The notes beneath the pieces are model-generated. The model did no database searches, was not told the origin of the DNA, and saw only the letters and a list, made by a program, of their open reading frames with translations. Below, in pieces: positions 4,473 to 57,503 of a DNA stretch of 64,000 nt. Location: NCBI GenBank assembly GCA_964409615.1, contig CAYPDT010000002.1, positions 1,226 to 65,225 on the forward strand, read 5' to 3'. Numbering within the stretch: position 1 is the stretch's first letter; every line of letters starts with the position of its first letter. This DNA is from an uncultured Candidatus Saccharibacteria bacterium (GTDB taxonomy: Bacteria > Patescibacteriota > Saccharimonadia > Saccharimonadales > AWTP1-31). A program made the position numbers and the translations under genes.

Positions 4473-5101
4473 TGGGACAAAAAGTAAATCCAATTTCAAT
4501 GCGTCTCCAGGTCAATAAAGACTGGCGGAGCAAATGGTTCGCAAACAAGCGCGAGTATGCAACCTATCTTGAAAAAGATCTGAACGTGCGCAAGATGATC
4601 CAGAACAAACTAGGTAGCCGCGCGGCTATTAACAAAGTCGACATTGAGCGTTCACCAAACCTCGTAACCGTAACTATCTATACAGCTAAAGCTGGTGTAG
4701 TAATTGGTCGTGGTGGTGCCGGTGCACAAGAGCTAAAAGCAAATATCGAGAAAATCTACCAGGCACAGACTCGCGTTAACATCGAAGAAGTTAAGAAGCC
4801 TGAATTACATGCTAAGCTCGTTGCCGAGAACATCGCTCACCAAATTGAGCGACGTATTTCATTCCGCCGTGCAGTTAAGTCAACTGCTGCCGCTACCATG
4901 CGTGCTGGTGCTAAAGGTATCCGTGTTGAGGTTGCTGGTCGACTAAACGGTGCCGAGATGAGCCGACGTGAAAAAGAAGTACAAGGCAGCGTGCCACTTC
5001 ATACACTTCGTGCCGACATCGACTACGCACACGTTGGTGCGCAAACTCCAGCTGGCATCATTGGTGTTAAGGTTTGGATTTATAAAGGAGAGGTAAGCTA
5101 G
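4472..5101 (+). CDS. rpsC: 30S ribosomal protein S3 (uS3)
   Basis: [12 protein letters not shown] start, KH-domain GVVIGRGG, synteny. Confidence 0.98.
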
Positions 5102-5102
5102 C

Positions 5103-5516
5103 ATGTTACTCCCTAAACGAACTAAGTTCCGCAAGGTCCGCAAAGGACGAATTACCGGTGTAGCTACCAGCGGTAACTACATCGCCTTCGGCGACTTCGC
5201 CCTCCAGAGTCTTGGCTCTGAGCGAATCACCAGCCGACAAATCGAAGCCTCACGTCAGGCTATGACCCGCTACATCAAGCGTGGTGGTAAAATCTGGATC
5301 CGCATCTTCCCACATACACCTGTTACGCGAAAGCCACAGGACGTAAAAATGGGTAGTGGTAAAGGTAACCCAGAATTCTTCGTAGCCAAGGTACGTCCTG
5401 GCACCATCCTGTTCGAAATGCAGGGTGTCAGCGAAGAAGTAGCCCGAGAAGCTATGCGTCTAGCCAGCCACAAGCTGCCAATCAAGACCAAGTTCTTGGT
5501 GAAAGATGAGGCATAA
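5103..5516 (+). CDS. rplP: 50S ribosomal protein L16 (uL16)
   Basis: [11 protein letters not shown] start; 137 aa; synteny. Confidence 0.98.
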
Positions 5517-5719
5517 TGATGAAAATAATTGATATCCGTAAATATTCAACCGCAGAGCTCGCAGCCGAAAGCACCAAGCTTCGGGAAGAGATTGCCGAAC
5601 TTCGTCGACGCGTCCACATGGGCGAATCAACAAATGTTCGTCAGATTCGTGCAAAGCGAAAAGACCTCGCTCGTATGTTAACCGTACTGAGTGAACAATT
5701 AGCAAAGGAGAACGCATAA
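5516..5719 (+). CDS. rpmC: 50S ribosomal protein L29 (uL29)
   Basis: 67 aa with the helical [12 protein letters not shown] pattern; lies between rplP and rpsQ. Confidence 0.93.
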
Positions 5720-6039
5720 TGGCTAAATCACTGACCGGCGTTGTCGTATCTGATAAGACCGACAAGACCATCGTAGTGTCTGTTGCTACTCACAAAAACC
5801 ATCCTTTGTACCGCAAAGCATATGTGACGAGCAAGAAATTCATGGCACACGACGAAAAGAACGAAGCGAAGCCAGGTGATACTGTTATCATCACCGAAAC
5901 TCGCCCACTAAGCGCACGCAAGCACCACACCTTAACAAAGATTGTTGAGCGAGCTGCAATTACTCAGGCCGATTCTGTCGAAGCTGTTGCTGCCCAGCCA
6001 ACACTTGATGAAGAAACCAAAGTCGAGGAGAAGGCATAA
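5719..6039 (+). CDS. rpsQ: 30S ribosomal protein S17 (uS17)
   Basis: [16 protein letters not shown] motif; synteny. Confidence 0.96.
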
Positions 6040-6407
6040 TGATCCAACAAGAATCACGTCTCGCTGTCTGCGACAACTCTGGTGCTAAAGAGATTCTTTG
6101 CATCCGTGTGCTTGGTGGTACTCGCCGCCGATATGCACACGTGGGAGATGTTATTGTCGCAACTGTTAAACAAGCAAACCCACAGGGTAATGTTAAGAAA
6201 AAATCAGTTGTTCGTGCCGTAGTTGTTCGCACCACCAACGCTATCAAGCGTAAAGATGGCTCAACGATTCGTTTCGACGATAATGCAGCTGTTATCATTG
6301 GTGACGATAAGCTACCGAAAGCAACTCGTATCTTTGGCCCGGTTCCTCGTGAACTCCGCGACCAAGGCTACGCTAAAATTATTTCCCTCGCACCGGAGGT
6401 TCTATAA
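6039..6407 (+). CDS. rplN: 50S ribosomal protein L14 (uL14)
   Basis: [17 protein letters not shown] start; 122 aa. Confidence 0.98.
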
Positions 6408-11817: not shown

Positions 11818-13113
11818 CTAGTTTGCGAAAACTGTCTTGCGGCGGATGCTTCGTACTCGCATTGCGAGGGCGCCAAGTGCTATCACACCTGCAGCAAATG
11901 CACCAACCTCAGTAGCGTTCACACCAGTCTCGGCTAACGCAGGAGGTAATTCTGGCTTACCAACAATGGTAGTAGTTGTACTTGTCTCTTGAGGAGGCAA
12001 GCGCCAGGTGGTTTCTGGTGGAATCATCGGAAACTCTACAATTGTGTCTGGCACAGTTGTTGCCGGTGGCAACACTGGTGGTTGCGTAGTTGTTGGGGCA
12101 GCCACCGTTGTAGAGGTAGTGGATGTTGTTGATGTTGTGCTAGTAGTTGTGGGAGCGGCAGTCGTAGATGTAGTGGTCGCAGGAATAGTTGTACTAGTGG
12201 TGCAAGGTATGGTCGTACTAGTAGTAGTTGATGTCGACGGGGTTGTCGTAGTGGTTTCGTGTGTCACTTCAATACCTTCGTCAAGCGAGCTCCAGCCAGC
12301 ACTTTCGATATTTAGCCGAAGTTCAAGGTTCTGTAACTGGGCATCGGTTGGGTTTAGACCATATTGTTCTGCAAAGAAGTTTCGTAAGTCACTAACCGTT
12401 ACGTCAGTTATCTGGCCACTGTAGCCTTCGACGTTCATCTTACGTACTATCAGGTATTCTTTGCCGTTTAGAACTGCCTGCAGAGCAGCATCGTTGCCAG
12501 CTAAGTCTAAATCTGCTTGAGTTGAACCAACCGGCAGTAGTTTAGCCTCAATCGCCTTGGCGAGTGCTTGATCTTTGGTAACACCGTCTTCAAGCACACC
12601 GTTCTGGTAGTGTGAAGAGGCCGGCTTGTCACAGTCTACAGCCTGAGCGTTCTGGTTTAAGCCACAGTTTTTGATGACCATACGGACATCACCATCTCGG
12701 GCATCAACATGATATACACGTTGCTTGATTGTCACTTTTGGAAGTGGCTTAAATGTTTCAGCAGATGCTTCAGCAAATGCTGTGCCATCGAATAATGTCT
12801 CTTGCGTATCTGCTACTGCAACTTCTGTTCCGGTATTTGCTGGGCTAGCGGTCTCGGCGGTGATAGACAGGCTGCCGACAGCTTGTACAGATTGCAGCTC
12901 ACCAGTATTTGACTGGGCAAATACCAATTGCTGATCTGCTTCAGCGCCTGCGCGAGAAGCATCTACTTCTGTAATGATACTTGCTGCACTTTGCGCGTCA
13001 GGATTACCCTCGAACTGCGCAGCACCTCCAAGAGCCAAAGACTCCTGCACGGCTGGTGGCATTAGCGCTACAGCGCCTTCGCCACTTTGTAATACAATTA
13101 CTTCATTTGACAT
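11818..13113 (-). CDS. cell-wall-anchored surface protein with an LAETG sortase signal and a Thr/Ser/Pro-rich stalk
   Basis: The C-terminus reads LAETG (11923-11937), then a hydrophobic helix (VGAFAAGVIALGALAM), then RVRSIRRK. The T/S/P-rich tract is at 12079-12258. AAGGAG lies 7 nt upstream of the ATG. Confidence 0.8.
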   Translation of the reverse strand: MSNEVIVLQSGEGAVALMPPAVQESLALGGAAQFEGNPDAQSAASIITEVDASRAGAEADQQLVFAQSNTGELQSVQAVGSLSITAETASPANTGTEVAVADTQETLFDGTAFAEASAETFKPLPKVTIKQRVYHVDARDGDVRMVIKNCGLNQNAQAVDCDKPASSHYQNGVLEDGVTKDQALAKAIEAKLLPVGSTQADLDLAGNDAALQAVLNGKEYLIVRKMNVEGYSGQITDVTVSDLRNFFAEQYGLNPTDAQLQNLELRLNIESAGWSSLDEGIEVTHETTTTTPSTSTTTSTTIPCTTSTTIPATTTSTTAAPTTTSTTSTTSTTSTTVAAPTTTQPPVLPPATTVPDTIVEFPMIPPETTWRLPPQETSTTTTIVGKPELPPALAETGVNATEVGAFAAGVIALGALAMRVRSIRRKTVFAN

Positions 13114-13387
13114 ATACTTCTCCTTGGCACATGTGCGCCATTTATCGTTAGAATATATGGGATATCTCTGAAGGATTTGTATCCTTATAAAAGAGTATCG
13201 TCCCGGTTTCGCTACTTGCTCCCCGTATATCCAAGCGACCAGATACAGATAAACGGATCATTACACGACGGTTTACGTCTATAGCATAATACTACTTTTA
13301 TAACATTTTGTCAATATATGCTGTAGTCTTTCTTGCAGACCCAACAGGGCAAGTCTGGTACCTATTTGATTAGTCCAACATTATATC

Positions 13388-48737: not shown

Positions 48738-48757
48738 AGCTAGTCACTTTCATCAAG

Positions 48758-48790
48758 AGACCGCTCATCACTACTGAGCGGTCTTTTTTG
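48758..48790 (+). terminator. Rho-independent terminator after rplA
   Basis: AGACCGCTCA-TCACTAC-TGAGCGGTCT followed by TTTTT. Confidence 0.9.
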
Positions 48791-48797
48791 TTGGTCG

Positions 48798-48862
48798 TGT
48801 CCAAGGTCCGACCTTGGAAATTCCATACCATAACTCTTGTTTCCAAGGTCGGACCTTGGACA
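48798..48862. repeat. pair of 23-bp inverted repeats in which each arm is itself a 19-bp palindrome
   Basis: TGTCCAAGGTCCGACCTTGGAAA (48798-48820) and its exact reverse complement TTTCCAAGGTCGGACCTTGGACA (48840-48862), with a 19-nt spacer. Confidence 0.9.
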
Positions 48863-48900
48863 AACAGCGATAGGTGGGTGGATGTCGTATAATAAGACTA

Positions 48901-49707
48901 ATGATAATTATTGGCATCACAGGGTCTATCGGGCATGGCAAAACAAGTTTGGCTAAAGCATTCTTACGTCAAGTCTCTCCAGCTCAACATACTGAATCAA
49001 GTATCTTAATAAGCCGTGTTGCCGACGAGCTCAATAAAAGTTTTCCTATCGCCAACCCTACTTCGGGTGATATCGCATCAATTAATGCCTGGCTAAGTGG
49101 CCTGCCTGAAATTCTTCGGCAGGTTGCTCATTTCGCTGGAACCATTAATCCAATTCGTCTGAGCGCTGAGCCGGTTGTAGTTGCTGATCAAGATTTCCAA
49201 AAACTCCATGAATACCTAGAGCTCGTTGAAAAAAATCACTCATTAATCACACAAATTATTACGCCAGATAATAAAGATGAATACCGGCCGATACTGCAAT
49301 GGTTGGGTGCCTACATTACAAAACACGTTAGTCCTACACTTTGGTACGATGAACTTATTCGACAGGCCGCAACGGCCGAAGCTAGTGGTTGTGAATTATT
49401 CGTTATCGGCGGTATCCGATTTCCTAGCGACGGCCAGGTAATTCACCAAGCGGGAGGGCTTATCGTTGCTATCGAAAGGCCAAACATCACACAACAAGAT
49501 GCCGAAGATGCCACTGAAGCGTTTCGTTCTATGGTACCTGTCGATACAACTGTTATAAATGATGGCGCTCTGGGAGCACTCGACCATGCCGTCTATACCA
49601 TTTGGCAGGATATAAAGAACGACAATCTGCAAACACGCTATCAAGTATCACGTTTGGCATTTGATGCTACGCAATCGCCCACTATACAGGGCCGCGATAT
49701 TTTATAA
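48901..49707 (+). CDS. P-loop kinase, dephospho-CoA kinase (CoaE)-like N-terminus with a long C-terminal region
   Basis: MIIIGITGSIGHGKTSLA matches the CoaE-type GxTGxxGxGKT(S) motif. At 268 aa it is longer than a typical CoaE. Confidence 0.5.
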   Translation: MIIIGITGSIGHGKTSLAKAFLRQVSPAQHTESSILISRVADELNKSFPIANPTSGDIASINAWLSGLPEILRQVAHFAGTINPIRLSAEPVVVADQDFQKLHEYLELVEKNHSLITQIITPDNKDEYRPILQWLGAYITKHVSPTLWYDELIRQAATAEASGCELFVIGGIRFPSDGQVIHQAGGLIVAIERPNITQQDAEDATEAFRSMVPVDTTVINDGALGALDHAVYTIWQDIKNDNLQTRYQVSRLAFDATQSPTIQGRDIL

Positions 49708-49713
49708 AAACCT

Positions 49714-50367
49714 TTATTCTTTGGTTGCAGGGAAGTCGGCTTTGAGCTTTTTGATGTCACCTGACGTAATGCACTCAATTTCGGTTTCTCGTTCGTTGCC
49801 CACGCTCGCCACATCCACTCCTTCGATGATATCGCGCTGGTGGTATCGGCTCTTGCGTGCAGTCACTTTGTCGCCTAAGGCTTCAAAAACGAGCTGACAG
49901 AATCGTTCGCCAGGATATAATCGGACTGTCTGTTGCTGGGTGTTATTGCGAATAGGGATAACTAACTGACCTTCATAGCCACTATCGACAATGCCTGTTT
50001 GGTCAACTGAAATTCCTTTGCGGTTAGTAGACGAACGAGGGTACATAACGGCCATAAGGTCATCGGGCACCTTAATACTCTCGAGTGAAGAAACTAAGAT
50101 ATGTTCGCCGGGCAATAAGTCAAAAAACTGACCTTTTTCTAACTCAATAATGTCGAAGTATTCTGGTTGAGTTTCGGCAAAAAAGTCTAGATGAATCTGC
50201 TCGCGCCCGCCAGCCGTAACATGCCACGACTTTGGGACTAAAAAGGTAAAACCGAGTCGTAAATCTACCGCATGAGCTTGAAGCTGAAAACTATCGAGTC
50301 CCGGCTTAAAACCTAGCGTGCCAGCCGAAACATACTCTAAAATTTGTTGTTTGGTTAGAACCGCCAT
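49714..50367 (-). CDS. dCTP deaminase/dUTPase superfamily protein (Dcd-like length, dUTPase-like motif 3)
   Basis: VDLRLG, YPRSSTNRKGI and GIVDSGYEGQLVIPIRN..YPGERFCQLVF motifs. Confidence 0.7.
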   Translation of the reverse strand: MAVLTKQQILEYVSAGTLGFKPGLDSFQLQAHAVDLRLGFTFLVPKSWHVTAGGREQIHLDFFAETQPEYFDIIELEKGQFFDLLPGEHILVSSLESIKVPDDLMAVMYPRSSTNRKGISVDQTGIVDSGYEGQLVIPIRNNTQQQTVRLYPGERFCQLVFEALGDKVTARKSRYHQRDIIEGVDVASVGNERETEIECITSGDIKKLKADFPATKE

Positions 50368-50859
50368 TTACAGTACCTCATATTCAAGCAACAGTGTATC
50401 ACGGTTAAGTTGCCGACTATTAGCAAGTTGAAGGGTGCAATCCAGAGCATCATTGAATAATGTCATGCCCGCTCCAAACAGCTTGGGCTCGAGCGTTAGG
50501 TATAATCGGTCTACTAAACCAGCTTTCATAAACAATGTATAAATTTGTTGCCCGCCACAGATTGCGATGTCTTTAAACCCGTCGCTGTGTAGCCGTGCGA
50601 TTAAAGCACCGGGTTCTTCTGTAGTTGCCTCCAGGTCCGGCAGCTGCAGTTGTTGCCGGGTCATAACAACGGTACGTCGACCTGGCAATGCTCGTCCTAT
50701 AGTCTTAAAGGTTGTGTGACCCATAATCATAACGCCCGCCTTTTTTGTAAGTTCCACAAAAACTTTCTTGTCTTCGGCGCTTGTCCAATCAGCCAGGTGC
50801 TCAGCGTCTTGTGCGATAAAACCATCGGCAGTAACGGCAGCAATAATAAATACGCTCAT
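50368..50859 (-). CDS. folA: dihydrofolate reductase (FolA/RibD_C-like)
   Basis: IIAAVTADGFIA, MIMGHTTFKTIGRALPGRRTVVMTR and ICGGQQIY align with the FolA pattern. Overlaps the ThyA-family gene by 4 nt. Confidence 0.7.
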   Translation of the reverse strand: MSVFIIAAVTADGFIAQDAEHLADWTSAEDKKVFVELTKKAGVMIMGHTTFKTIGRALPGRRTVVMTRQQLQLPDLEATTEEPGALIARLHSDGFKDIAICGGQQIYTLFMKAGLVDRLYLTLEPKLFGAGMTLFNDALDCTLQLANSRQLNRDTLLLEYEVL

Positions 50860-51692
50860 AGTACTATTTTCAACCCTTTAATTCGCTCAGCGGGTTCATA
50901 TTGAGCCACTAGCGCATCATTAATCTCTTCTACCAAACTAGTATCCCGAGCTTCTGCTCTTTGATACGAATTGGCCGGAAGTTGTATTGTGATTTTTGGC
51001 ACATCAAGTTTGCGAGATATCATTTCTTTTGCTGCCTCATAGTGGATGTCATACACATGCGCATTAGCAATAATATGAGTGTAGACGCCCGGCTCAACAC
51101 CTAGTTCTTGCGCCAAAATACATTGCAACAGTGCGAAACCTGCTACATCGTGCGGGAAGCCAAGAATCATATCATTAGATCGCACCACGTTCATCATATT
51201 CAACCGTCCGCCAATAATGTTGACGGTAAATGTATAGGGGCAAGGAACATTACCTTTACTTGTTCCGCCAAGACCATCGCTTGACGGGTCCCAGGTTACA
51301 ACCACTCCATGTCGCGAAGAAGGGTCTTTTTTAAGAAGAGCGACTAACTTGCCGAGCTGGTCACGACCGAAATGCTTGCGCCAACGATAGCCATAGGCCA
51401 CAGTAACTACATCACCAGGGTTTGTGAAGTCATCCCAAATCTTAGTGAAATCTCGAAGAAATATTTCTGGCTTGCGGGCCCCAGAAATAAACCACACTTG
51501 CTCGGCAATAAAAATTTTGGTTGGAATTTTGCGAATCGACAAGATTGGGAAGCCGTCTTTCTGCAAATCAATAGAGAACGATAGTCCTGGCAAAGCCTTT
51601 GTTTCGTGGCCGGTACGCTCATTAACTTCAGCAATACCGCGCGTCATTATGTCTTTCAGTAGACCTTGGTATATCTTGTCAAACTTCGCCAT
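50856..51692 (-). CDS. thymidylate synthase (ThyA)/dCMP hydroxymethylase superfamily enzyme with Asp at the ThyA Asn177-equivalent position
   Basis: ERTGHET, YGYRWR, DQLGKLVALLKKDPSSRH, VPCPY (catalytic Cys), VRSNDMILGFPHDVAGF and AHVYDIH motifs. Confidence 0.8.
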   Translation of the reverse strand: MAKFDKIYQGLLKDIMTRGIAEVNERTGHETKALPGLSFSIDLQKDGFPILSIRKIPTKIFIAEQVWFISGARKPEIFLRDFTKIWDDFTNPGDVVTVAYGYRWRKHFGRDQLGKLVALLKKDPSSRHGVVVTWDPSSDGLGGTSKGNVPCPYTFTVNIIGGRLNMMNVVRSNDMILGFPHDVAGFALLQCILAQELGVEPGVYTHIIANAHVYDIHYEAAKEMISRKLDVPKITIQLPANSYQRAEARDTSLVEEINDALVAQYEPAERIKGLKIVL

Positions 51693-51730
51693 TGTATTCA
51701 GATTATAAATAACTTACCCTTGAATTGACA

Positions 51731-52240
51731 ATGAATAAAGAACAAAGCCCCTCAATCGTCTACCCATACATACATCCTGAAGGCACTTTTAGGTACGTCG
51801 ATAGCACCGACGAGTTCATGCTTGCAGCCAAAGAATTTGCCCACCAGAACTCCTTAGACGACACTATGCCGACCGGAACTGTTTTGGTTAAAGACGGCGA
51901 GATTATTGGTCGTGGAGCAAATGGTAGTAATTATCACAAAGAACATGGTTGCGAGCGAGTACGACTGAACATTCCAACTGGCCAAGGCTACGATTTGTGT
52001 GAAGGTTGTAGCCCTAAAAATCATAGTGAACCCAAAGCAATCGCCGACGCCCAAGCCCACGACAAGGCGACCGATGGTGCTGAAGCATATCTGTGGGGCC
52101 ATTGGTGGTGCTGCGAGCCATGCTGGAAGGCACTTATCGGTAATGGTATTCAGGTGGTCTATCTGCAGACAGGCTCCGAAGTGTTGTTCAACAAAGAAGC
52201 CGCAGGCAATATTATTGGTCATCAGTTCGATGTACAGTAA
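51731..52240 (+). CDS. dCMP deaminase (ComEB/CDA-fold zinc deaminase)
   Basis: HSEPKAI (H[AS]E) and CCEPCWKAL (PCxxC) zinc motifs. The ATG at 51731 is preferred over the track's TTG at 51725. Confidence 0.8.
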   Translation: MNKEQSPSIVYPYIHPEGTFRYVDSTDEFMLAAKEFAHQNSLDDTMPTGTVLVKDGEIIGRGANGSNYHKEHGCERVRLNIPTGQGYDLCEGCSPKNHSEPKAIADAQAHDKATDGAEAYLWGHWWCCEPCWKALIGNGIQVVYLQTGSEVLFNKEAAGNIIGHQFDVQ

Positions 52241-52307
52241 CGAGTAATCCGGGTACAATACAAGTAACAATGTGGGGCTTAATCTTGGTTTACAGGAGGG
52301 AGTACAC

Positions 52308-54644
52308 ATGGGACAAGATGAGGAACGTACAGGCGTCTTTATAGTCATCGAGGGGACGGACGGCTCGGGCAAAGGCACTCAGTTTGCATTGCTTGCAAAA
52401 AGACTACAAGAACAGGGCTACGATGTGGCCACCTTTGATTTTCCACAGTACGATAAAGAATCCAGTTATTTTGTACGGCAATACTTAAACGGACACTACG
52501 GCACAGCTGAAGAGGTCGGACCCTACACTGGCTCACTGTTTTACGCACTCGACCGCTATGAGGCAGCGGCCAGCATCCGGCAAGCGCTTAGCGAAGGGAA
52601 GGTGGTTTTAGCCAATCGTTTTACCGGATCGAACATGGCCCATCAAGGAACAAAATTTAACAATCACGAAGAACGTCGTGGTTATTTTATATGGCTAGAT
52701 AACCTAGAGTTTGTCATGCTCAAAGTTCCACGGCCCGACAAAAGTTTCGTATTACGAGTACCGGCCGACATTGCCCAGCAGCTGGTCGACCAGAAAGAAG
52801 CACGTAGTTATACCGACAAAAAGCGAGACCTCCACGAAGCAGACTTATCCCACCTCCAACGTGCCGTAGAAGTCTACGACGACATGTGCCAGCTATTCCC
52901 ACGTGACTTTCAGCGTATCGATTGCGTACGGAGCGGTTCATTCCTCAGTATCGAAGCGGTCAGTGACCTGCTGTGGGAAACCGTTGTTCCGTTCTTACCA
53001 ACTAAACCAGGCCACTCATCCAGCAGCGCAATAGGCACAACACCCAACCCTTACATACAAAAAGATGCCTTAGGCCAGAGCAAGATTACTCAAGCAGGTA
53101 ACGACTTTCTAAACAACGCAGTAACTGATGTCAGCGGTAATATCTACGCCTTTACCAATACACTCAGTCCAACTTTAGTTGCTGCCGCCATGGCCCGACT
53201 CAGTCGACGAGGCGATGATTTACGACATATAATTTTAGAAGAGTTTGCTCAAGCTAACAACAAAGACAATGCGCTACTGCATCGTGTTATCACTGAATAT
53301 GGAGATGATTCGGTTCAGCAATTAGTCAGCTTACATTTGGTCGTCGAAAAGGCCTCGAATCTTCTGACAAAAAAATTAGAATGGGGCAGGCTAGCTGCCT
53401 ATTTGGAACAATCCACTCGCTATATTTACTTTGACCAGAAGGATGCCAGCGGAGAGTACCAATACCACACGCCAAGCACTTTCGGTCATGAACTACGTGG
53501 AGCTTATCAACTAGGAATGAACACCATTTTTGATAAATACTCTGAGTTGGTTAGTGGTCTTGTAACCTATCTGCAACAAAACTCTGCAACCCCAGAAGCT
53601 GAACGCGATACGGCATGGCGTAACGCAATCCGCGCTCAAGCCTGCGACGCAGCACGGCCAGTTTTGCCGGTTGCAACAACAGCAACAGTTGGCATCCATG
53701 CATCTGGTCAAGCTGTCGAAAACCTCATCATGAACTTACTTGGCGATGCACTTCCTGAAGCTCAGCAAGCTGGCAAAGAACTGCTTGCACAGGCTAGAAA
53801 AGTCATACCCACATTCCTCGAGCGTGCTGACGTACCCGAGCGTGGAGGGGCGACAAGTGCCTATCGAGCCACCACCCGTAATAATCTCAAACAATTAGCC
53901 AACGACCTACTGCCCGGGCAGTTTGGACAATACGAAGAACCTGTACGCCTGACAGGCGTGTGGCCGCGCAACGAGCTAGATCTTGTAGCAGACATGCTTT
54001 ATGAGCACAGTCACTTATCGCTCAAAGAAATTGAAGAACAGGTTGCTAACTGGCCCTACGATACAAAAGTTTCAGTACTAAACGCATATATGGGCGAGCG
54101 TCTTAATCGTCGCCAGCGGCCAGGTCGAGCTCTCGAAAAAGCACATTACAGTTGGGATATCGTCTGCGACTACGGTATTTTCCGCGACCTTCAACGGCAC
54201 CGCATGGTAGATGATTTACAGTGGCAACAACTTACTCCACGATATGGCTACGAAATGCCAAAACTCGTTGAAGATGCTGGCCTGAGTGAATTATTCGAAG
54301 ATTGCTTTGATATTAGCCTACGATTACACAGTGAGCTACAGGCTGCAGGCTATGACGACGAGGCACAATATGCCACACTTCTCGGCCACCGCATGCGCTG
54401 GAAAGTGACATACAACGCCCGCCAGGCATTTCATATACACGAGCTTCGCACCAGTCCACAAGGTCACCCGGGATACCGTAAACTAGTAAAAGAAATGCAT
54501 AATAAGCTTGCGGAAGCGCACCCGCTTATTGCCGAAGCAATGCGGTTTGTTAACCACGGGGACGACCCCGAACTAACCCGCTTAGCAGCAGAACGCTACA
54601 ACCAATTCAAGCAACTTCAGGCTAAACAGACTCCTCCGCAGTAA
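52308..54644 (+). CDS. fusion protein: thymidylate kinase (N-terminal) plus two tandem ThyX-like (Thy1 fold) domains with degenerate motifs
   Basis: Tmk part: VIEGTDGSGKGTQ and YALDRYEA. ThyX-like copy 1: WGRLAAYLEQSTRY and ARPVLPVATT. ThyX-like copy 2: RHRMVDDLQWQQLTPRY and HIHELRTSPQGHPGYR. GGAGGG RBS before the ATG at 52308. Confidence 0.7.
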   Translation: MGQDEERTGVFIVIEGTDGSGKGTQFALLAKRLQEQGYDVATFDFPQYDKESSYFVRQYLNGHYGTAEEVGPYTGSLFYALDRYEAAASIRQALSEGKVVLANRFTGSNMAHQGTKFNNHEERRGYFIWLDNLEFVMLKVPRPDKSFVLRVPADIAQQLVDQKEARSYTDKKRDLHEADLSHLQRAVEVYDDMCQLFPRDFQRIDCVRSGSFLSIEAVSDLLWETVVPFLPTKPGHSSSSAIGTTPNPYIQKDALGQSKITQAGNDFLNNAVTDVSGNIYAFTNTLSPTLVAAAMARLSRRGDDLRHIILEEFAQANNKDNALLHRVITEYGDDSVQQLVSLHLVVEKASNLLTKKLEWGRLAAYLEQSTRYIYFDQKDASGEYQYHTPSTFGHELRGAYQLGMNTIFDKYSELVSGLVTYLQQNSATPEAERDTAWRNAIRAQACDAARPVLPVATTATVGIHASGQAVENLIMNLLGDALPEAQQAGKELLAQARKVIPTFLERADVPERGGATSAYRATTRNNLKQLANDLLPGQFGQYEEPVRLTGVWPRNELDLVADMLYEHSHLSLKEIEEQVANWPYDTKVSVLNAYMGERLNRRQRPGRALEKAHYSWDIVCDYGIFRDLQRHRMVDDLQWQQLTPRYGYEMPKLVEDAGLSELFEDCFDISLRLHSELQAAGYDDEAQYATLLGHRMRWKVTYNARQAFHIHELRTSPQGHPGYRKLVKEMHNKLAEAHPLIAEAMRFVNHGDDPELTRLAAERYNQFKQLQAKQTPPQ

Positions 54645-54739
54645 CTAACCAATGATCGGCAATGGCTCTTTTGTGGTAATTGTTATATAATTTACTATGA
54701 TTTATCAGGTTAATTTACAAGGCTGAAGAGAGGATCATT

Positions 54740-55648
54740 ATGGCCAATCACCAAGATTACTTAGAGTTCGCATTCTTACAAGGCAAGATTATCCCATTCA
54801 AGGACGCCAATATTTCGGTGGCGACCAACGGCTTGCAATATGGTATGGGTATTTTCGGTGGCATTAAAGGCTACAAGCAAGCTGATGGTTCAATCGGTAT
54901 CTTTAGACTAGACGACCACATCGAGCGACTTCGTAAAAGTGCAAAAATTTTACGTATGCCTTTTGATTTTGATGCCGAAAAAATTAAGTCAACTTTTATT
55001 GAATTAACAAAAAAGAATGCTCCAAAAGGCAATGTCTACTACCGCCCCTTTATCTACCGAAGTGACATTGCTCTCAGCCCTGCTGTTAGTGGCGATTACG
55101 ATATGACCCTCTACATGCTAAATATGGCTGATTATTTCGATAAGTCACGCGGGCTCAAAGTTTGCGTGTCTGCCTGGACTCGTAACAGCGATAATGCACT
55201 TCCACCCCGCACAAAAGCAAGCGGTGGATATGTTAATGCCGCCCTAGCAATGCATGATGCCACTACGGCTGGCTTTGATGCCGCTGTCATGCTAGATAGC
55301 TCTGGTCATGTTGGTGAAGGTGCAGTTATGAATATCTACGTCGTTCGTGACGGCAAGATTATCACACCAAATGTCACAGCCGACATCCTAGAAGGCATAA
55401 CGCGTCGCACTGTCACTGAGCTTGCCGAGAAACTCAACATTCCAGTTGTCGAACGCGCTATAGATCGAACCGAACTATACATTGCCGATGAAATTTTCTT
55501 CTCAGGCACCGCCACTGAACTCAGTTGGGCAGAGTCAGTCGATAATGTGGCTATCTGTAGCAAACCGGGCCCGATTTTTAGCCAGCTCAACAAAGCGTTC
55601 GATGAGCTTGTTCATGACAGCAAAAATCCACACTTAACCATTGTTTAG
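54740..55648 (+). CDS. class IV (fold type IV) PLP aminotransferase (branched-chain amino acid or D-amino acid aminotransferase)
   Basis: FRLDDHIERLRKSA, TKASGGYVN and LEGITRRTV motifs; 302 aa. Confidence 0.8.
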   Translation: MANHQDYLEFAFLQGKIIPFKDANISVATNGLQYGMGIFGGIKGYKQADGSIGIFRLDDHIERLRKSAKILRMPFDFDAEKIKSTFIELTKKNAPKGNVYYRPFIYRSDIALSPAVSGDYDMTLYMLNMADYFDKSRGLKVCVSAWTRNSDNALPPRTKASGGYVNAALAMHDATTAGFDAAVMLDSSGHVGEGAVMNIYVVRDGKIITPNVTADILEGITRRTVTELAEKLNIPVVERAIDRTELYIADEIFFSGTATELSWAESVDNVAICSKPGPIFSQLNKAFDELVHDSKNPHLTIV

Positions 55649-55729
55649 TTCGGTCTTTAGCAACTCACAAGAAAAGCACGAAGCAAAGGACCTATACTAA
55701 GTTATATTTTAGTTGTATAATATACTTTT

Positions 55730-56323
55730 ATGGCACGTCCTCATTTTCCTTGCTCCAACCCAGCAGACTTACAAGCTCCAGAAGAATTCCTGGAGCAGGA
55801 GTTACAGCACGGCAATCGATTCCCAGTTTGCAACATATCTGGGCCGATTTTTGACGCTCTGTTAGCCGAGGCAATTGCTGTAAATGACTCCGCGTTCGCA
55901 CGTAATGTAGGCTTTCTTGAAGTTAATTACCAACCACAAAGTGACGAAACGATTGCGTTGACCCAGATGATGCACCGTGTTGCGCTAATGGGATTAGTCG
56001 TCAGTGCTCGTGAGCCGCGTCGTGAAATTACTCGCTTGTTTAAAAGTGGTGATGCCGGAATTCATGTCGACTACGGCTTTGGGAATTTAGTCAACCTAAC
56101 CGCAGAAGGCCAAAGAGTTACGACGCATTTTGATAATGAGGTTAGAGACTCCCAGGCAAAACTCCTCCGAGTGGGTGACATCTCGGTAATCCCAAGTCTT
56201 ACGGCGCCGTACTATTTACAATCCGTACCACACGAGGTAGCCAGTTCTACCGAAGGCGGCCTAGTCTTGCAGTGCACCGCAATCTTTCCGCTGCGTGATC
56301 AGCGAGCTGGCTTACTAGCTTGA
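55730..56323 (+). CDS. hypothetical protein (197 aa)
   Basis: ORF with a possible HxD...H arrangement (GIHVDYG ... VPHEV). The family assignment is not secure. Confidence 0.45.
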   Translation: MARPHFPCSNPADLQAPEEFLEQELQHGNRFPVCNISGPIFDALLAEAIAVNDSAFARNVGFLEVNYQPQSDETIALTQMMHRVALMGLVVSAREPRREITRLFKSGDAGIHVDYGFGNLVNLTAEGQRVTTHFDNEVRDSQAKLLRVGDISVIPSLTAPYYLQSVPHEVASSTEGGLVLQCTAIFPLRDQRAGLLA

Positions 56324-56503
56324 CGCCGTGCACCCTAAGGTTTACCATCGAAGCTATGATTATCACACAACAAGCACAACTCCTCCTCAGACTTCCACGG
56401 CTGTGCTTCAGTGTGATTGAAGCCTGAGCGAGAGCTTCAAGTACAGCTAACCAGTCAGGCTTCAGCGCCTGATTTTAACTTTACAAAAAATGAAAGAGGA
56501 GCA

Positions 56504-56728
56504 ATGGGAATTGAAGATAGCCGATTCAGGGGCTTTACAGAATCAAACCGCGCAACCGACCGACTTGAAGCAGTACGGAGCGCCGAAATCGAACGAATAC
56601 GTCGCGACGGCAGCCTGCACGGGCAATCAGGCCGGTTAGCGGTTGCGCAGCATGTCACAGAAGTGCCAGAAGCCTGCGAACAAGTACGACCCGTCGAAGT
56701 GGTAGACGTGCAAGGCGAGATATTGTAA
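56504..56728 (+). CDS. hypothetical small protein (weak call; the track start at 56417 is a TTG)
   Basis: The ATG at 56504 is preceded by AGAGGAG. No motif recognised. Confidence 0.3.
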   Translation: MGIEDSRFRGFTESNRATDRLEAVRSAEIERIRRDGSLHGQSGRLAVAQHVTEVPEACEQVRPVEVVDVQGEIL

Positions 56729-56758
56729 TCAACACTCTAAAAATGTATCACTAACAGA

Positions 56759-56788
56759 TTGACTTGTGGCCTATGTAGTTGCTATAAT
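56759..56788 (+). promoter_or_regulatory. promoter candidate for rplJ-rplL
   Basis: TTGACT, 18-nt spacer, TATAAT. Confidence 0.55.
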
Positions 56789-56978
56789 GTACTCATCGTT
56801 ACCAAAGACAGTAGCTGACAATGAGTAATCAACGTCTTAATTTGCTACCGAGGTAGAAACATTATGTTTCAGCACTCTCATTAAGTCCTTGGCACGCTCA
56901 AGGACTTTTTAGTTTAGCGGTAACGTGAAAAACAATATAGGTCGATAGTTTTTCAAAATATACAAAGGAGAATTATCC
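56789..56978 (+). promoter_or_regulatory. structured rplJ 5' leader with an internal terminator hairpin (L10-leader-type autoregulatory element, candidate)
   Basis: 190-nt untranslated leader containing AAGTCCTTG-GCACGCT-CAAGGACTT followed by TTT (56883-56910), 68 nt before the rplJ ATG. Confidence 0.45.
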
Positions 56979-57503
56979 ATGGCATTGACTAAGGATAAAA
57001 AGCAACAAGTTGTCGAAGAAGTAGCTGATTTACTCAGTGATTCTAAGCTGACTGTTGTTGCAGCCTACCAAGGTACAACCGTTAAAGCACTACAGCAATT
57101 GCGCCGTGATGCTCGTAACGACTCTACTGCGGTTAAGGTTGTAAAAAACCGCCTCGTTATCAAGGCTATCGAGAAGAACGAAGCCCTAAAAGACGTTGAT
57201 ACCAGCGCTCTTAAAGGTCAGTTGCTCTACGCTTTTAACGCAACCGATGAAGTAGCTCCTGCTAAGGTATTGGCTGAGTTTGCAAAAACCAACCCGACAC
57301 TCCAATTTGTTGGCGCAATTAGCGTTGATGGCAAATTTATGAGCGCCGAAGAAGTTACTGCACTCGCAACCCTACCAAGCAAGACACAGCTTATCGCTGG
57401 CATCATCAATACCCTTAATGGCCCAGTCAATGGCGTCATGAGTGGTCTTGGTGGCAATTTACATGGTTTGCTCAAGGCTATTGAAGCCAAGGCAGCCAAC
57501 TAA
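56979..57503 (+). CDS. rplJ: 50S ribosomal protein L10 (uL10)
   Basis: 174 aa; [20 protein letters not shown] motif; followed by rplL. Confidence 0.95.

Follow-up and report, generated by a model that had tools for sequence, protein, structure and literature searches.

The window considered here is a stretch of 64,000 nucleotides from an uncultured Candidatus Saccharibacteria bacterium (order Saccharimonadales of the Patescibacteriota; GenBank assembly GCA_964409615.1, contig CAYPDT010000002.1, positions 1,226 to 65,225 of the forward strand), and our subject is a gene within it, at 50856..51692 on the minus strand, whose product of 278 amino acids (aa) is a ThyA-family enzyme. From its Pfam family, alignments, a neighbour-joining (NJ) tree, profile scores and an AlphaFold2 (AF2) model, this enzyme is predicted to be a C5-methylase of deoxycytidylate (dCMP), i.e., a 5-methyl-dCMP synthase. 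The gene lies in a compact group of nucleotide-metabolism genes. Its stop codon shares the four nucleotides ATGA, at 50856-50859, with the start of a dihydrofolate reductase (DHFR) gene (163 aa, 50368..50859, minus strand; Pfam DHFR_1 1.8e-18 and RibD_C 7.2e-17), and the TAA stop of the DHFR gene directly abuts the ATG of the next gene, which encodes a 217-aa protein of the deoxycytidine triphosphate (dCTP) deaminase fold that lacks the catalytic Glu (49714..50367, minus strand; hereafter the Dcd-like protein). On the other side, an AT-rich spacer of 38 bp (51693..51730) separates the thyA start (51692) from the ATG (51731) of a divergently transcribed gene for a zinc deaminase of the cytidine deaminase (CDA) fold, 169 aa long when counted from that ATG (51731..52240, plus strand; Pfam dCMP_cyt_deam_1 5.8e-10), and this is followed by a 790-aa fusion of a thymidylate kinase (Tmk) with a ThyX-like module (52272..54644, plus strand; Pfam Thymidylate_kin 9.4e-20 and Thy1 2.4e-33). 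Both the 4-nt overlap and the 38-bp gap, as given in an earlier note made from the sequence by eye, are exact. The whole cluster is an insert (48738-56783) in the gap between rplA (ribosomal protein L1, 47718..48737, plus strand) and the L10 leader/rplJ (56784..57503), in what is normally the contiguous rplKA-rplJL region.

The pyrimidine-binding residues and their phage counterparts

The protein matches PF00303 (Thymidylat_synt) over profile positions 2-261 of 266 (176 bits, E 1.1e-51), and its AF2 model (pLDDT 81, pTM 0.85), when used for a Foldseek search, was matched to the ThyA proteins of E. faecalis, L. casei and E. coli (E 1e-21, TM 0.7-0.77). Residue equivalences come from two mappings that agree with one another, a MAFFT alignment with E. 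coli ThyA as the reference (100% identical to PDB 1AOB) and a HMMER alignment to solved ThyA structures, in which the query segment 'rsndmilgfphdvagfall' pairs ungapped with 'rsadiflgvpfniasyall'. Arg171, Ser172 and Asp174 correspond to R166, S167 and D169 of E. coli, and Cys151 to the catalytic C146, as the earlier note had read the RSxD motif and the Cys from its own eye alignment; E58, W80, Y94, R21, R126, H207 and Y209 (E. coli numbering) are kept as well. That note's central observation, an Asp at the position of Asn177 and a Pro at that of His147, also appears in both computed alignments (Asp182, codon 51147..51149 on the minus strand; Pro152), and its eye alignment was not shifted. Three further changes went beyond it: Asn148 stands for L143, Phe89 for W83 and His128 for R127. 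The marks of a canonical ThyA at positions 147, 143 and 83 (His, Leu and Trp) are therefore replaced by Pro, Asn and Phe, together with Asn177 by Asp, and two of these replacements flank the catalytic Cys in the codons for N148-V-P-C151-P152 (51237..51251, minus strand), which correspond to L143-A-P-C146-H147 in E. coli. The C-terminus, 'QY.P...IKGLKIVL', is like that of E. coli ThyA (GYDPHPGIKAPVAI) and unlike that of T4 gp42. In ThyA, this tail folds over the folate so that hydride can be transferred, and because it is kept, reductive methylation seems the likelier chemistry, which also fits the coupled DHFR.

In canonical ThyA, Asn177 pairs with uracil N3-H/O4, and positions 177, 147, 143, 83 and 127 read the 3/4 edge of the pyrimidine and line the entrance to the active site. 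In two ThyA backgrounds, changing Asn177 to Asp is the established way of switching the enzyme from deoxyuridylate (dUMP) to dCMP (Hardy & Nalivaika 1992; Liu & Santi 1992, as cited in PMC8670742), and the reverse change, Asp to Asn, switches T4 gp42 (papers as cited in PMC8670742). The gp42 string RSNDVVFGFRND, which the earlier note had quoted as very similar to that of the window protein, is real, the gp42 sequence used being 100% identical to GenBank M37159. In viromes, no residues were more strongly associated with cytosine-modified DNA than those at positions 177 and 147. Two other positions mark different chemistries: the bulky Leu143 is thought to exclude water, its replacement by Asp or Glu is a marker of hydroxymethylases, and the change of Asp169 to Asn is a marker of 5-hydroxy-dCMP synthases (2026 paper, PMC13326640).

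An exhaustive search of representatives clustered at 50% identity returned 13,942 matches, and the combination F83/N143/P147/D177 was present in about 110 of the top 150, with canonical W83/L143/H147/N177 proteins appearing only lower down. The best matches among phages form the Xp12 group, i.e., Bosavirus/Pamexvirus phages such as DoCa10, Bosa, AXL1, PaMx28 and PaMx74, all with the same signature, and the enzymes of Xp12 (QNN97214.1), DoCa10 and PaMx28 have the identical N143/P147/D169/D177 plus F83. By BLAST the window protein is 37% identical to the Xp12 thymidylate synthase homologue (TS; 172 bits), 28% identical to E. coli ThyA (102 bits) and 22.5% identical to T4 gp42 (41 bits). It scores 262 bits against a profile of the Xp12-type phage enzymes that was built without any Patescibacteria sequence, as compared to 211 bits for a canonical N177 profile and 131 bits for a profile of the dUMP-hydroxymethylase type. 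In the NJ tree, which carries no support values, a canonical clade that includes E. coli stands apart from a D177/N143 family in which Xp12 and a tight Patescibacteria clade occupy opposite ends, and among contigs of IMG/VR the same signature separates Xp12-type modules (in the order HAD, TS, cd, DHFR) from dUMP-hydroxymethylase types with D143/N147/N177. The earlier note's proposal of a dCMP-acting ThyA homologue thus gains from profile, BLAST and tree alike, which place the protein in one F83/N143/P147/D177 subfamily with the Xp12 enzyme and make activity on dCMP the predicted one.

The subfamily is also uniform within the Patescibacteria. In the 85 sequences compared, Asp177, Asn143 and Phe83 are present without exception and Pro147 in 82, and the signature residues are not a matter of chance because they are so consistently kept; Cys146, R21, R126, R166, S167, D169, H207 and Y209 are invariant in all 85 and R127 is His or Gln. 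Outside the subfamily, three proteins of the canonical ThyA clade (P0263, P0265 and P0267, with W83, R127 and L143) combine Asp177 with a Pro or Cys at 147, which suggests, from these residues, independent switches to cytosine specificity. Four homologues of the D177 type (P0126, P0140, P0148 and P0186) are longer, at 420-470 aa, and have about 150-190 aa more at the N-terminus, as an extra domain.

Neighbours and distribution of the cluster

A genome scan with one genome per species found close relatives of the window protein encoded in at least 230 species genomes. Record titles among them name Saccharibacteria/Saccharimonadales, Parcubacteria, Paceibacteria and Minisyncoccia as well as Kaiser-, Taylor-, Adler-, Vogel-, Colwell-, Doudna- and Moraniibacteria. 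Neighbourhoods were compared over 6-10 kb around each match at 84 loci, namely the best 80 of the 230 from the genome scan, with 65-78% identity to the window protein, and four from contig look-ups. A CDA-fold deaminase gene adjoins the thyA homologue in 82 of the 84, and in 76 it is divergent and at most 250 bp away; a Dcd-fold gene is found beside the thyA homologue in 78, DHFR in 48, Tmk nearby in 42 to about 55, and ThyX near the cluster in seven, all of them close Saccharimonadales relatives. On Saccharimonadales contigs of 0.8-1.18 Mb (L003 and L004) the same rplA-rplJ gap is occupied by the cluster. With its position on the chromosome conserved and with so many species genomes encoding it, the cluster is a conserved housekeeping module of the Patescibacteria and not a prophage.

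Two candidates for membership in this module were rejected. A P-loop protein at 48874..49707 (plus strand), with a weak match to the T4 gp1-type dNMP kinase family PF21448 (32.5 bits), was found at none of the 84 related loci, and a HAD hydrolase, seen at L003 and L004 and also next to the Xp12 TS, proved at the Patescibacteria loci to be an unrelated HAD present at three only. No HAD/MazG-type pyrophosphohydrolase of the Xp12 kind was found in the window or in the Patescibacteria loci, where the operon has the Glu-less Dcd-fold protein instead. A 37-kb viral contig (L088, IMGVR_UViG_3300025858_000007) has at 4616-6250 three consecutive genes, for a related deaminase, for a ThyA homologue and for a HAD_SAK_2 hydrolase; the ThyA homologue is 60% identical to that of the window, with the signature FHNPDFD, and a canonical dUTPase, a protein with the N-domain of a dATP/dGTP diphosphohydrolase and a YqaJ recombinase are encoded nearby. 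The contig may be from a phage of Patescibacteria, and its copy hints at exchange between Patescibacteria and phages.

The deaminase encoded next to the thyA homologue conserves the zinc motifs H98-x-E100 and C128-x-x-C131 and has in addition a conserved Cys cluster and a YLWGHWW motif. The closest PDB fold to its AF2 model (pLDDT 90.5) is that of the T4 dCMP deaminase 1VQ2 (E 1.8e-6; the TM, 0.45, is weak), with TadA, further dCMP deaminases and the dCMP/dCTP deaminase of PBCV-1 next in line, and a comparison with PDB sequences gave no significant similarity to any chain. It is predicted to convert a 5-methyl-dC nucleotide to a dT nucleotide.

The Dcd-like protein scores 108 bits for TIGR02274, above the cut-off, and Pro138 (codon 49954-49956) aligns with the catalytic Glu138 of E. 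coli Dcd and Glu129 of M. tuberculosis Dcd (2QLP). The Pro is found in 74 of the 74 Patescibacteria sequences that have a residue in this column (78 aligned, including the window's). Ser111 and Arg115 are kept, Ala124 is changed to Gly and His121 to Asp, and the position of the dUTPase catalytic Asp is Gly. Judged by these residues, the protein is of a separate type in which deamination by the known mechanism is not possible, the catalytic Glu being replaced by Pro, and its annotation as a deaminase is probably wrong and its activity another; a candidate activity is that of a dNTP pyrophosphatase, which would convert dCTP to dCMP for the methylase or clean the pool. A literature search on the PDB codes of 'dCTP deaminase' entries without the Glu yielded nothing but papers on materials, unrelated to the subject. 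As to the DHFR, folA genes of other members of the candidate phyla radiation (CPR) complement an E. coli delta-folA strain (PMC11974145).

The Tmk-ThyX-like fusion, which is restricted to close Saccharimonadales relatives, consists of a dTMP kinase at about aa 1-250 and a tandem, divergent ThyX-like module at aa 299-790. The Thy1 match falls in two stretches, the scores for NF005923 and TIGR02170 are under the cut-offs, the RHR, PRY and NAR motifs of ThyX are present in the second half only, and the ThyX-like part had no match among PDB sequences. Besides its kinase step, from thymidylate (dTMP) to dTDP, the fusion may add a flavin-dependent dUMP route.

The setting of the cluster is chromosomal, and the window also holds tRNAs, secY, nusG, dnaX and dnaB, along with rplA and the L10 leader. 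Proteins identical or nearly identical to those of the window are known from MAGs of Candidatus Saccharimonadales. The ribosomal protein L1 (47718-48737, plus strand) has an N-terminal extension of about 120 aa that is rich in Lys, Ala and Glu. Far from the cluster there is an Rfam match to the c-di-GMP-II-GAG riboswitch (13192-13277, minus strand; 42.1 bits as compared to a gathering threshold of 40), which lies upstream of an open reading frame of 431 aa (11818-13113, minus strand) without a Pfam family.

A proposed route through 5-methyl-dCMP and its rivals

On balance, and with modest confidence, we read the gene from its sequence and its company as encoding a methylenetetrahydrofolate-dependent, dihydrofolate-producing dCMP C5-methylase of the Xp12 type, which would feed a route from 5-methyl-dC to dT, and not a dUMP-specific synthase. 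The signature residues, the place in the subfamily and the linkage of the genes are observations; the substrates of all the enzymes and the direction of flux are those that we infer. Cys151 would attack C6 of dCMP while Asp182, at the Asn177 position, would pair with cytosine N3/N4; the methylene group would be transferred and then reduced by the folate hydride; the translationally coupled DHFR would recycle the dihydrofolate; the divergent CDA-fold deaminase would turn the 5-methyl-dC nucleotide into a dT nucleotide; and Tmk would take dTMP to dTDP. The Glu-less Dcd-like protein may supply dCMP from dCTP or clean the dNTP pool. The enzyme adds a new branch, in cells, to a kind known from phages, and the pathway, if real, would be a new variant of cellular thymidylate synthesis.

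A 2024 preprint from the Weigele and Ettwiller groups (bioRxiv 10.1101/2024.12.05.627091) bears on this reading: in it, the enzyme of Xp12 is reported to yield 5-methyl-dC in an in vivo assay in E. coli, as did five out of seven relatives from metagenomes. According to the same preprint, the 'dCMP deaminases' that adjoin these phage enzymes are often selective for 5-methylcytosine (5mC), and it proposes that they turn 5-methyl-dC nucleotides into dT nucleotides; in viromes, 70% of the deaminase genes on cytosine-modified contigs lie at most 3 kb from a thymidylate synthase gene, as compared to 6% of those on unmodified contigs. The earlier note had suggested that dTMP could be made via 5-methyl-dCMP with the help of the neighbouring deaminase, and this is the same as the route that the preprint proposes for phages of the Xp12 type, in keeping with the presence of the deaminase at nearly all of the loci.

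Several observations weigh against the proposed route, and most of them belong equally to its strongest rival, in which the protein is an ordinary dUMP-methylating thymidylate synthase despite its Asp, for instance because a protonated Asp mimics Asn. The cluster would then be a classical dTMP operon, with the dUTPase-like protein and the dCMP deaminase supplying dUMP and ThyA, DHFR and Tmk finishing the pathway. We regard this as possible though doubtful. Its gene set, a protein of a dNTP-enzyme fold, a deaminase, ThyA, DHFR and Tmk, fits the textbook dUMP route as well as it fits the 5-methyl-dCMP route. All catalytic residues are the canonical ones, as is the C-terminal tail, and the protein passes the cut-off of the NCBIfam equivalog TIGR03284 'thymidylate synthase' (122.4 as compared to 108.35 bits) and falls far under those of NF002497, NF002496, NF002495 and NF002499 (e.g., 140.6 as compared to 327). 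Two of the seven D177 enzymes tested gave no 5-methyl-dC, the deaminases' selectivity for 5mC is polyphyletic and not readable from sequence (both bioRxiv 10.1101/2024.12.05.627091), and the assayed enzymes all lie outside the Patescibacteria clade, with the nearest validated one, that of Xp12, only 37% identical. For the deaminase, BLAST against those of Xp12, DoCa10 and PaMx28 gave nothing significant beyond the zinc motifs, and a kinship with the Xp12-type deaminases was rejected, the fold search having placed the protein only generically among dCMP deaminase/TadA folds. Other CPR homologues of Dcd keep the S, R, A and E residues, including the catalytic Glu (PMC10733785, supplement), so dUTP and dUMP may be made there and a dUMP-using synthase needed, and no ThyX was found within 6 kb outside the window's closest Saccharimonadales relatives at the 84 loci. 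In the window's own genome the ThyX-like module is present, and a pathway through 5-methyl-dCMP is not obviously needed. The same module can be turned against the rival, since the genome already has it for dUMP. The dUMP reading also has to contend with the replacement of Asn177 by Asp being an experimental switch to dCMP that works in reverse in T4 gp42, with four co-varying active-site changes across 85 sequences that are common to the validated Xp12 enzyme, with an Xp12-type profile that scores 51 bits above the canonical one, and with a near-obligate linkage to a deaminase that is typical of cytosine-modifying systems and not of canonical thyA genes.

A second rival keeps the dCMP methylase but sends its product through 5-methyl-dCTP into the chromosome, so that 5mC would be present in much or all of the DNA and the deaminase would divert only part of it to dT. 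It draws on the enzyme family and module being the same as in phages with complete replacement of C by 5mC, as in Xp12 and PaMx74 (bioRxiv 10.1101/2024.12.05.627091), and phages of the AXL1 type all carry DHFR, a deaminase, a TS and a pyrophosphohydrolase and have DNA that resists restriction enzymes with G/C sites (PMC9206674). The extra nucleotide kinases in or beside the cluster (the Tmk copies and the weak T4 gp1-type match) would suit such a scheme, as would a Dcd-fold protein without deaminase chemistry that acted as a dCTPase and depleted dCTP. We nevertheless think this improbable: the literature searched yielded no account of bulk 5mC in DNA from Patescibacteria; many such genomes, some of 55-58% GC by their isolate names, assemble normally, long single contigs included; no polymerase dedicated to 5mC and no exclusion system is indicated in the loci; and the cell would need repair that is independent of unmodified dCTP and transcription compatible with such DNA. 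A wider form of the idea, that 5-methyl-dCTP is also made and incorporated at replication throughout the radiation as pre-replicative bulk 5mC, so far known from phages alone (e.g., Xp12), is a shade less probable again.

That the enzyme is a dCMP hydroxymethylase like T4 gp42, or some other variant that modifies C5 (a 5-hydroxy-dCMP synthase, for example), is very improbable. Asp177 and a polar Asn in place of the bulky Leu at position 143 would be compatible with it, but the hydroxymethylases have Asp or Glu at 143 (T4 gp42 and the viral dUMP-hydroxymethylase type both have D143), the same Asn143 occurs in the methylase of Xp12, and D169, whose change to Asn marks the 5-hydroxy-dCMP synthases (PMC13326640), is kept. 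The signatures of both kinds of enzyme are absent from the window protein, its similarity to gp42 is low (22.5% identity, 41 bits), and the coupled DHFR and ThyA-like tail point to hydride transfer. The earlier note had named both a methylase and a hydroxymethylase, leaning to the former from the DHFR overlap; its methylase is the half that we retain, because Asn143 is as in Xp12, the tail is ThyA-like and the DHFR is translationally coupled, and its hydroxymethylase is the half that loses ground with no acidic residue at 143. The notion that the cluster is a recently acquired island of prophage or phage origin with no housekeeping role is scarcely credible and was rejected as contradicted by the conservation data, for even though the closest relatives outside the Patescibacteria include phage enzymes and the viral contig has a 60%-identical copy beside a related deaminase, the cluster sits between rplA and the L10 leader/rplJ in a setting of nusG, secY, dnaX and dnaB, holds the same position on the contigs of 0.8-1.18 Mb, has relatives in at least 230 species genomes and, in the loci examined, is flanked by no phage structural genes.

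To our knowledge, all cells are taken to make dTMP from dUMP, with either ThyA or ThyX. Thymidylate synthesis based on dUMP underlies genome annotation, metabolic models and the pharmacology of antifolates and 5-fluorouracil. If the route through 5-methyl-dCMP were true, dTMP synthesis in a major branch of the bacteria would follow a third route, independent of dUMP, that has until now existed only as the 2024 proposal for phages of the Xp12 type, and metabolic reconstructions of CPR bacteria would need correction. One would also have to ask by what means 5-methyl-dCTP is excluded from the DNA of these cells, or admitted to it. 5mC biotechnology would gain candidate enzymes in the Dcd-like protein without its Glu and in the new subfamily of deaminases, and genes would seem to have passed between CPR bacteria and their phages. 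Our literature search found no paper that ties Saccharibacteria, Patescibacteria or CPR to dCMP methylation, 5-methyl-dCMP or an unusual thyA, and CPR papers take the gene as a plain thyA. Genetically tractable Saccharibacteria are now available (PMC10633639).

Relation to known enzymes and phage modules

Among characterized enzymes the TS of Xp12 is the closest counterpart. Both proteins have the ThyA fold, the residues F83/N143/P147/D169/D177 and a ThyA-like tail, and both are encoded next to a DHFR and a CDA-family deaminase, the Xp12 module running in the order HAD hydrolase, TS, dCMP deaminase and DHFR. They differ in that the window protein has His at 176 and at 127, where Xp12 has Tyr and Arg, respectively. 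Xp12 is a lytic phage, whereas the window gene, a chromosomal one, is conserved across a radiation of bacteria, and the window's deaminase belongs to another CDA subfamily, with a Dcd-fold protein replacing the HAD/pyrophosphohydrolase. The phage deaminases beside D177 ThyA homologues share the CDA fold and the proposed role in making dT from 5-methyl-dC (bioRxiv 10.1101/2024.12.05.627091), and the Patescibacteria deaminase differs from them as a separate subfamily with its extra Cys cluster and YLWGHWW motif.

With the canonical ThyA of E. coli (EC 2.1.1.45) the window protein shares the fold, Cys146, R21, R126, R166, S167, D169, E58, Y94, H207, Y209, the tail and the coupling of thyA to folA; it differs from the E. 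coli enzyme by N177D, H147P, L143N, W83F and R127H. The engineered enzymes N177D (E. coli) and N229D (L. casei) are reported to have become dCMP methylases through the same replacement as is found in the window (as cited in PMC8670742), and the window protein differs from these mutants in being natural, with co-adapted changes at 143, 147 and 83. T4 gp42 likewise has Asp at the specificity position, within RSND...F/GF..D, but has Asp143 and Thr147, is without a ThyA-like C-terminal tail and does not oxidise its folate. The 5-hydroxy-dCMP synthases of RB69 and DLP3 are also N177D homologues of ThyA, and they differ by D169N and L143E, where the window protein keeps D169 and has N143 (PMC13326640).

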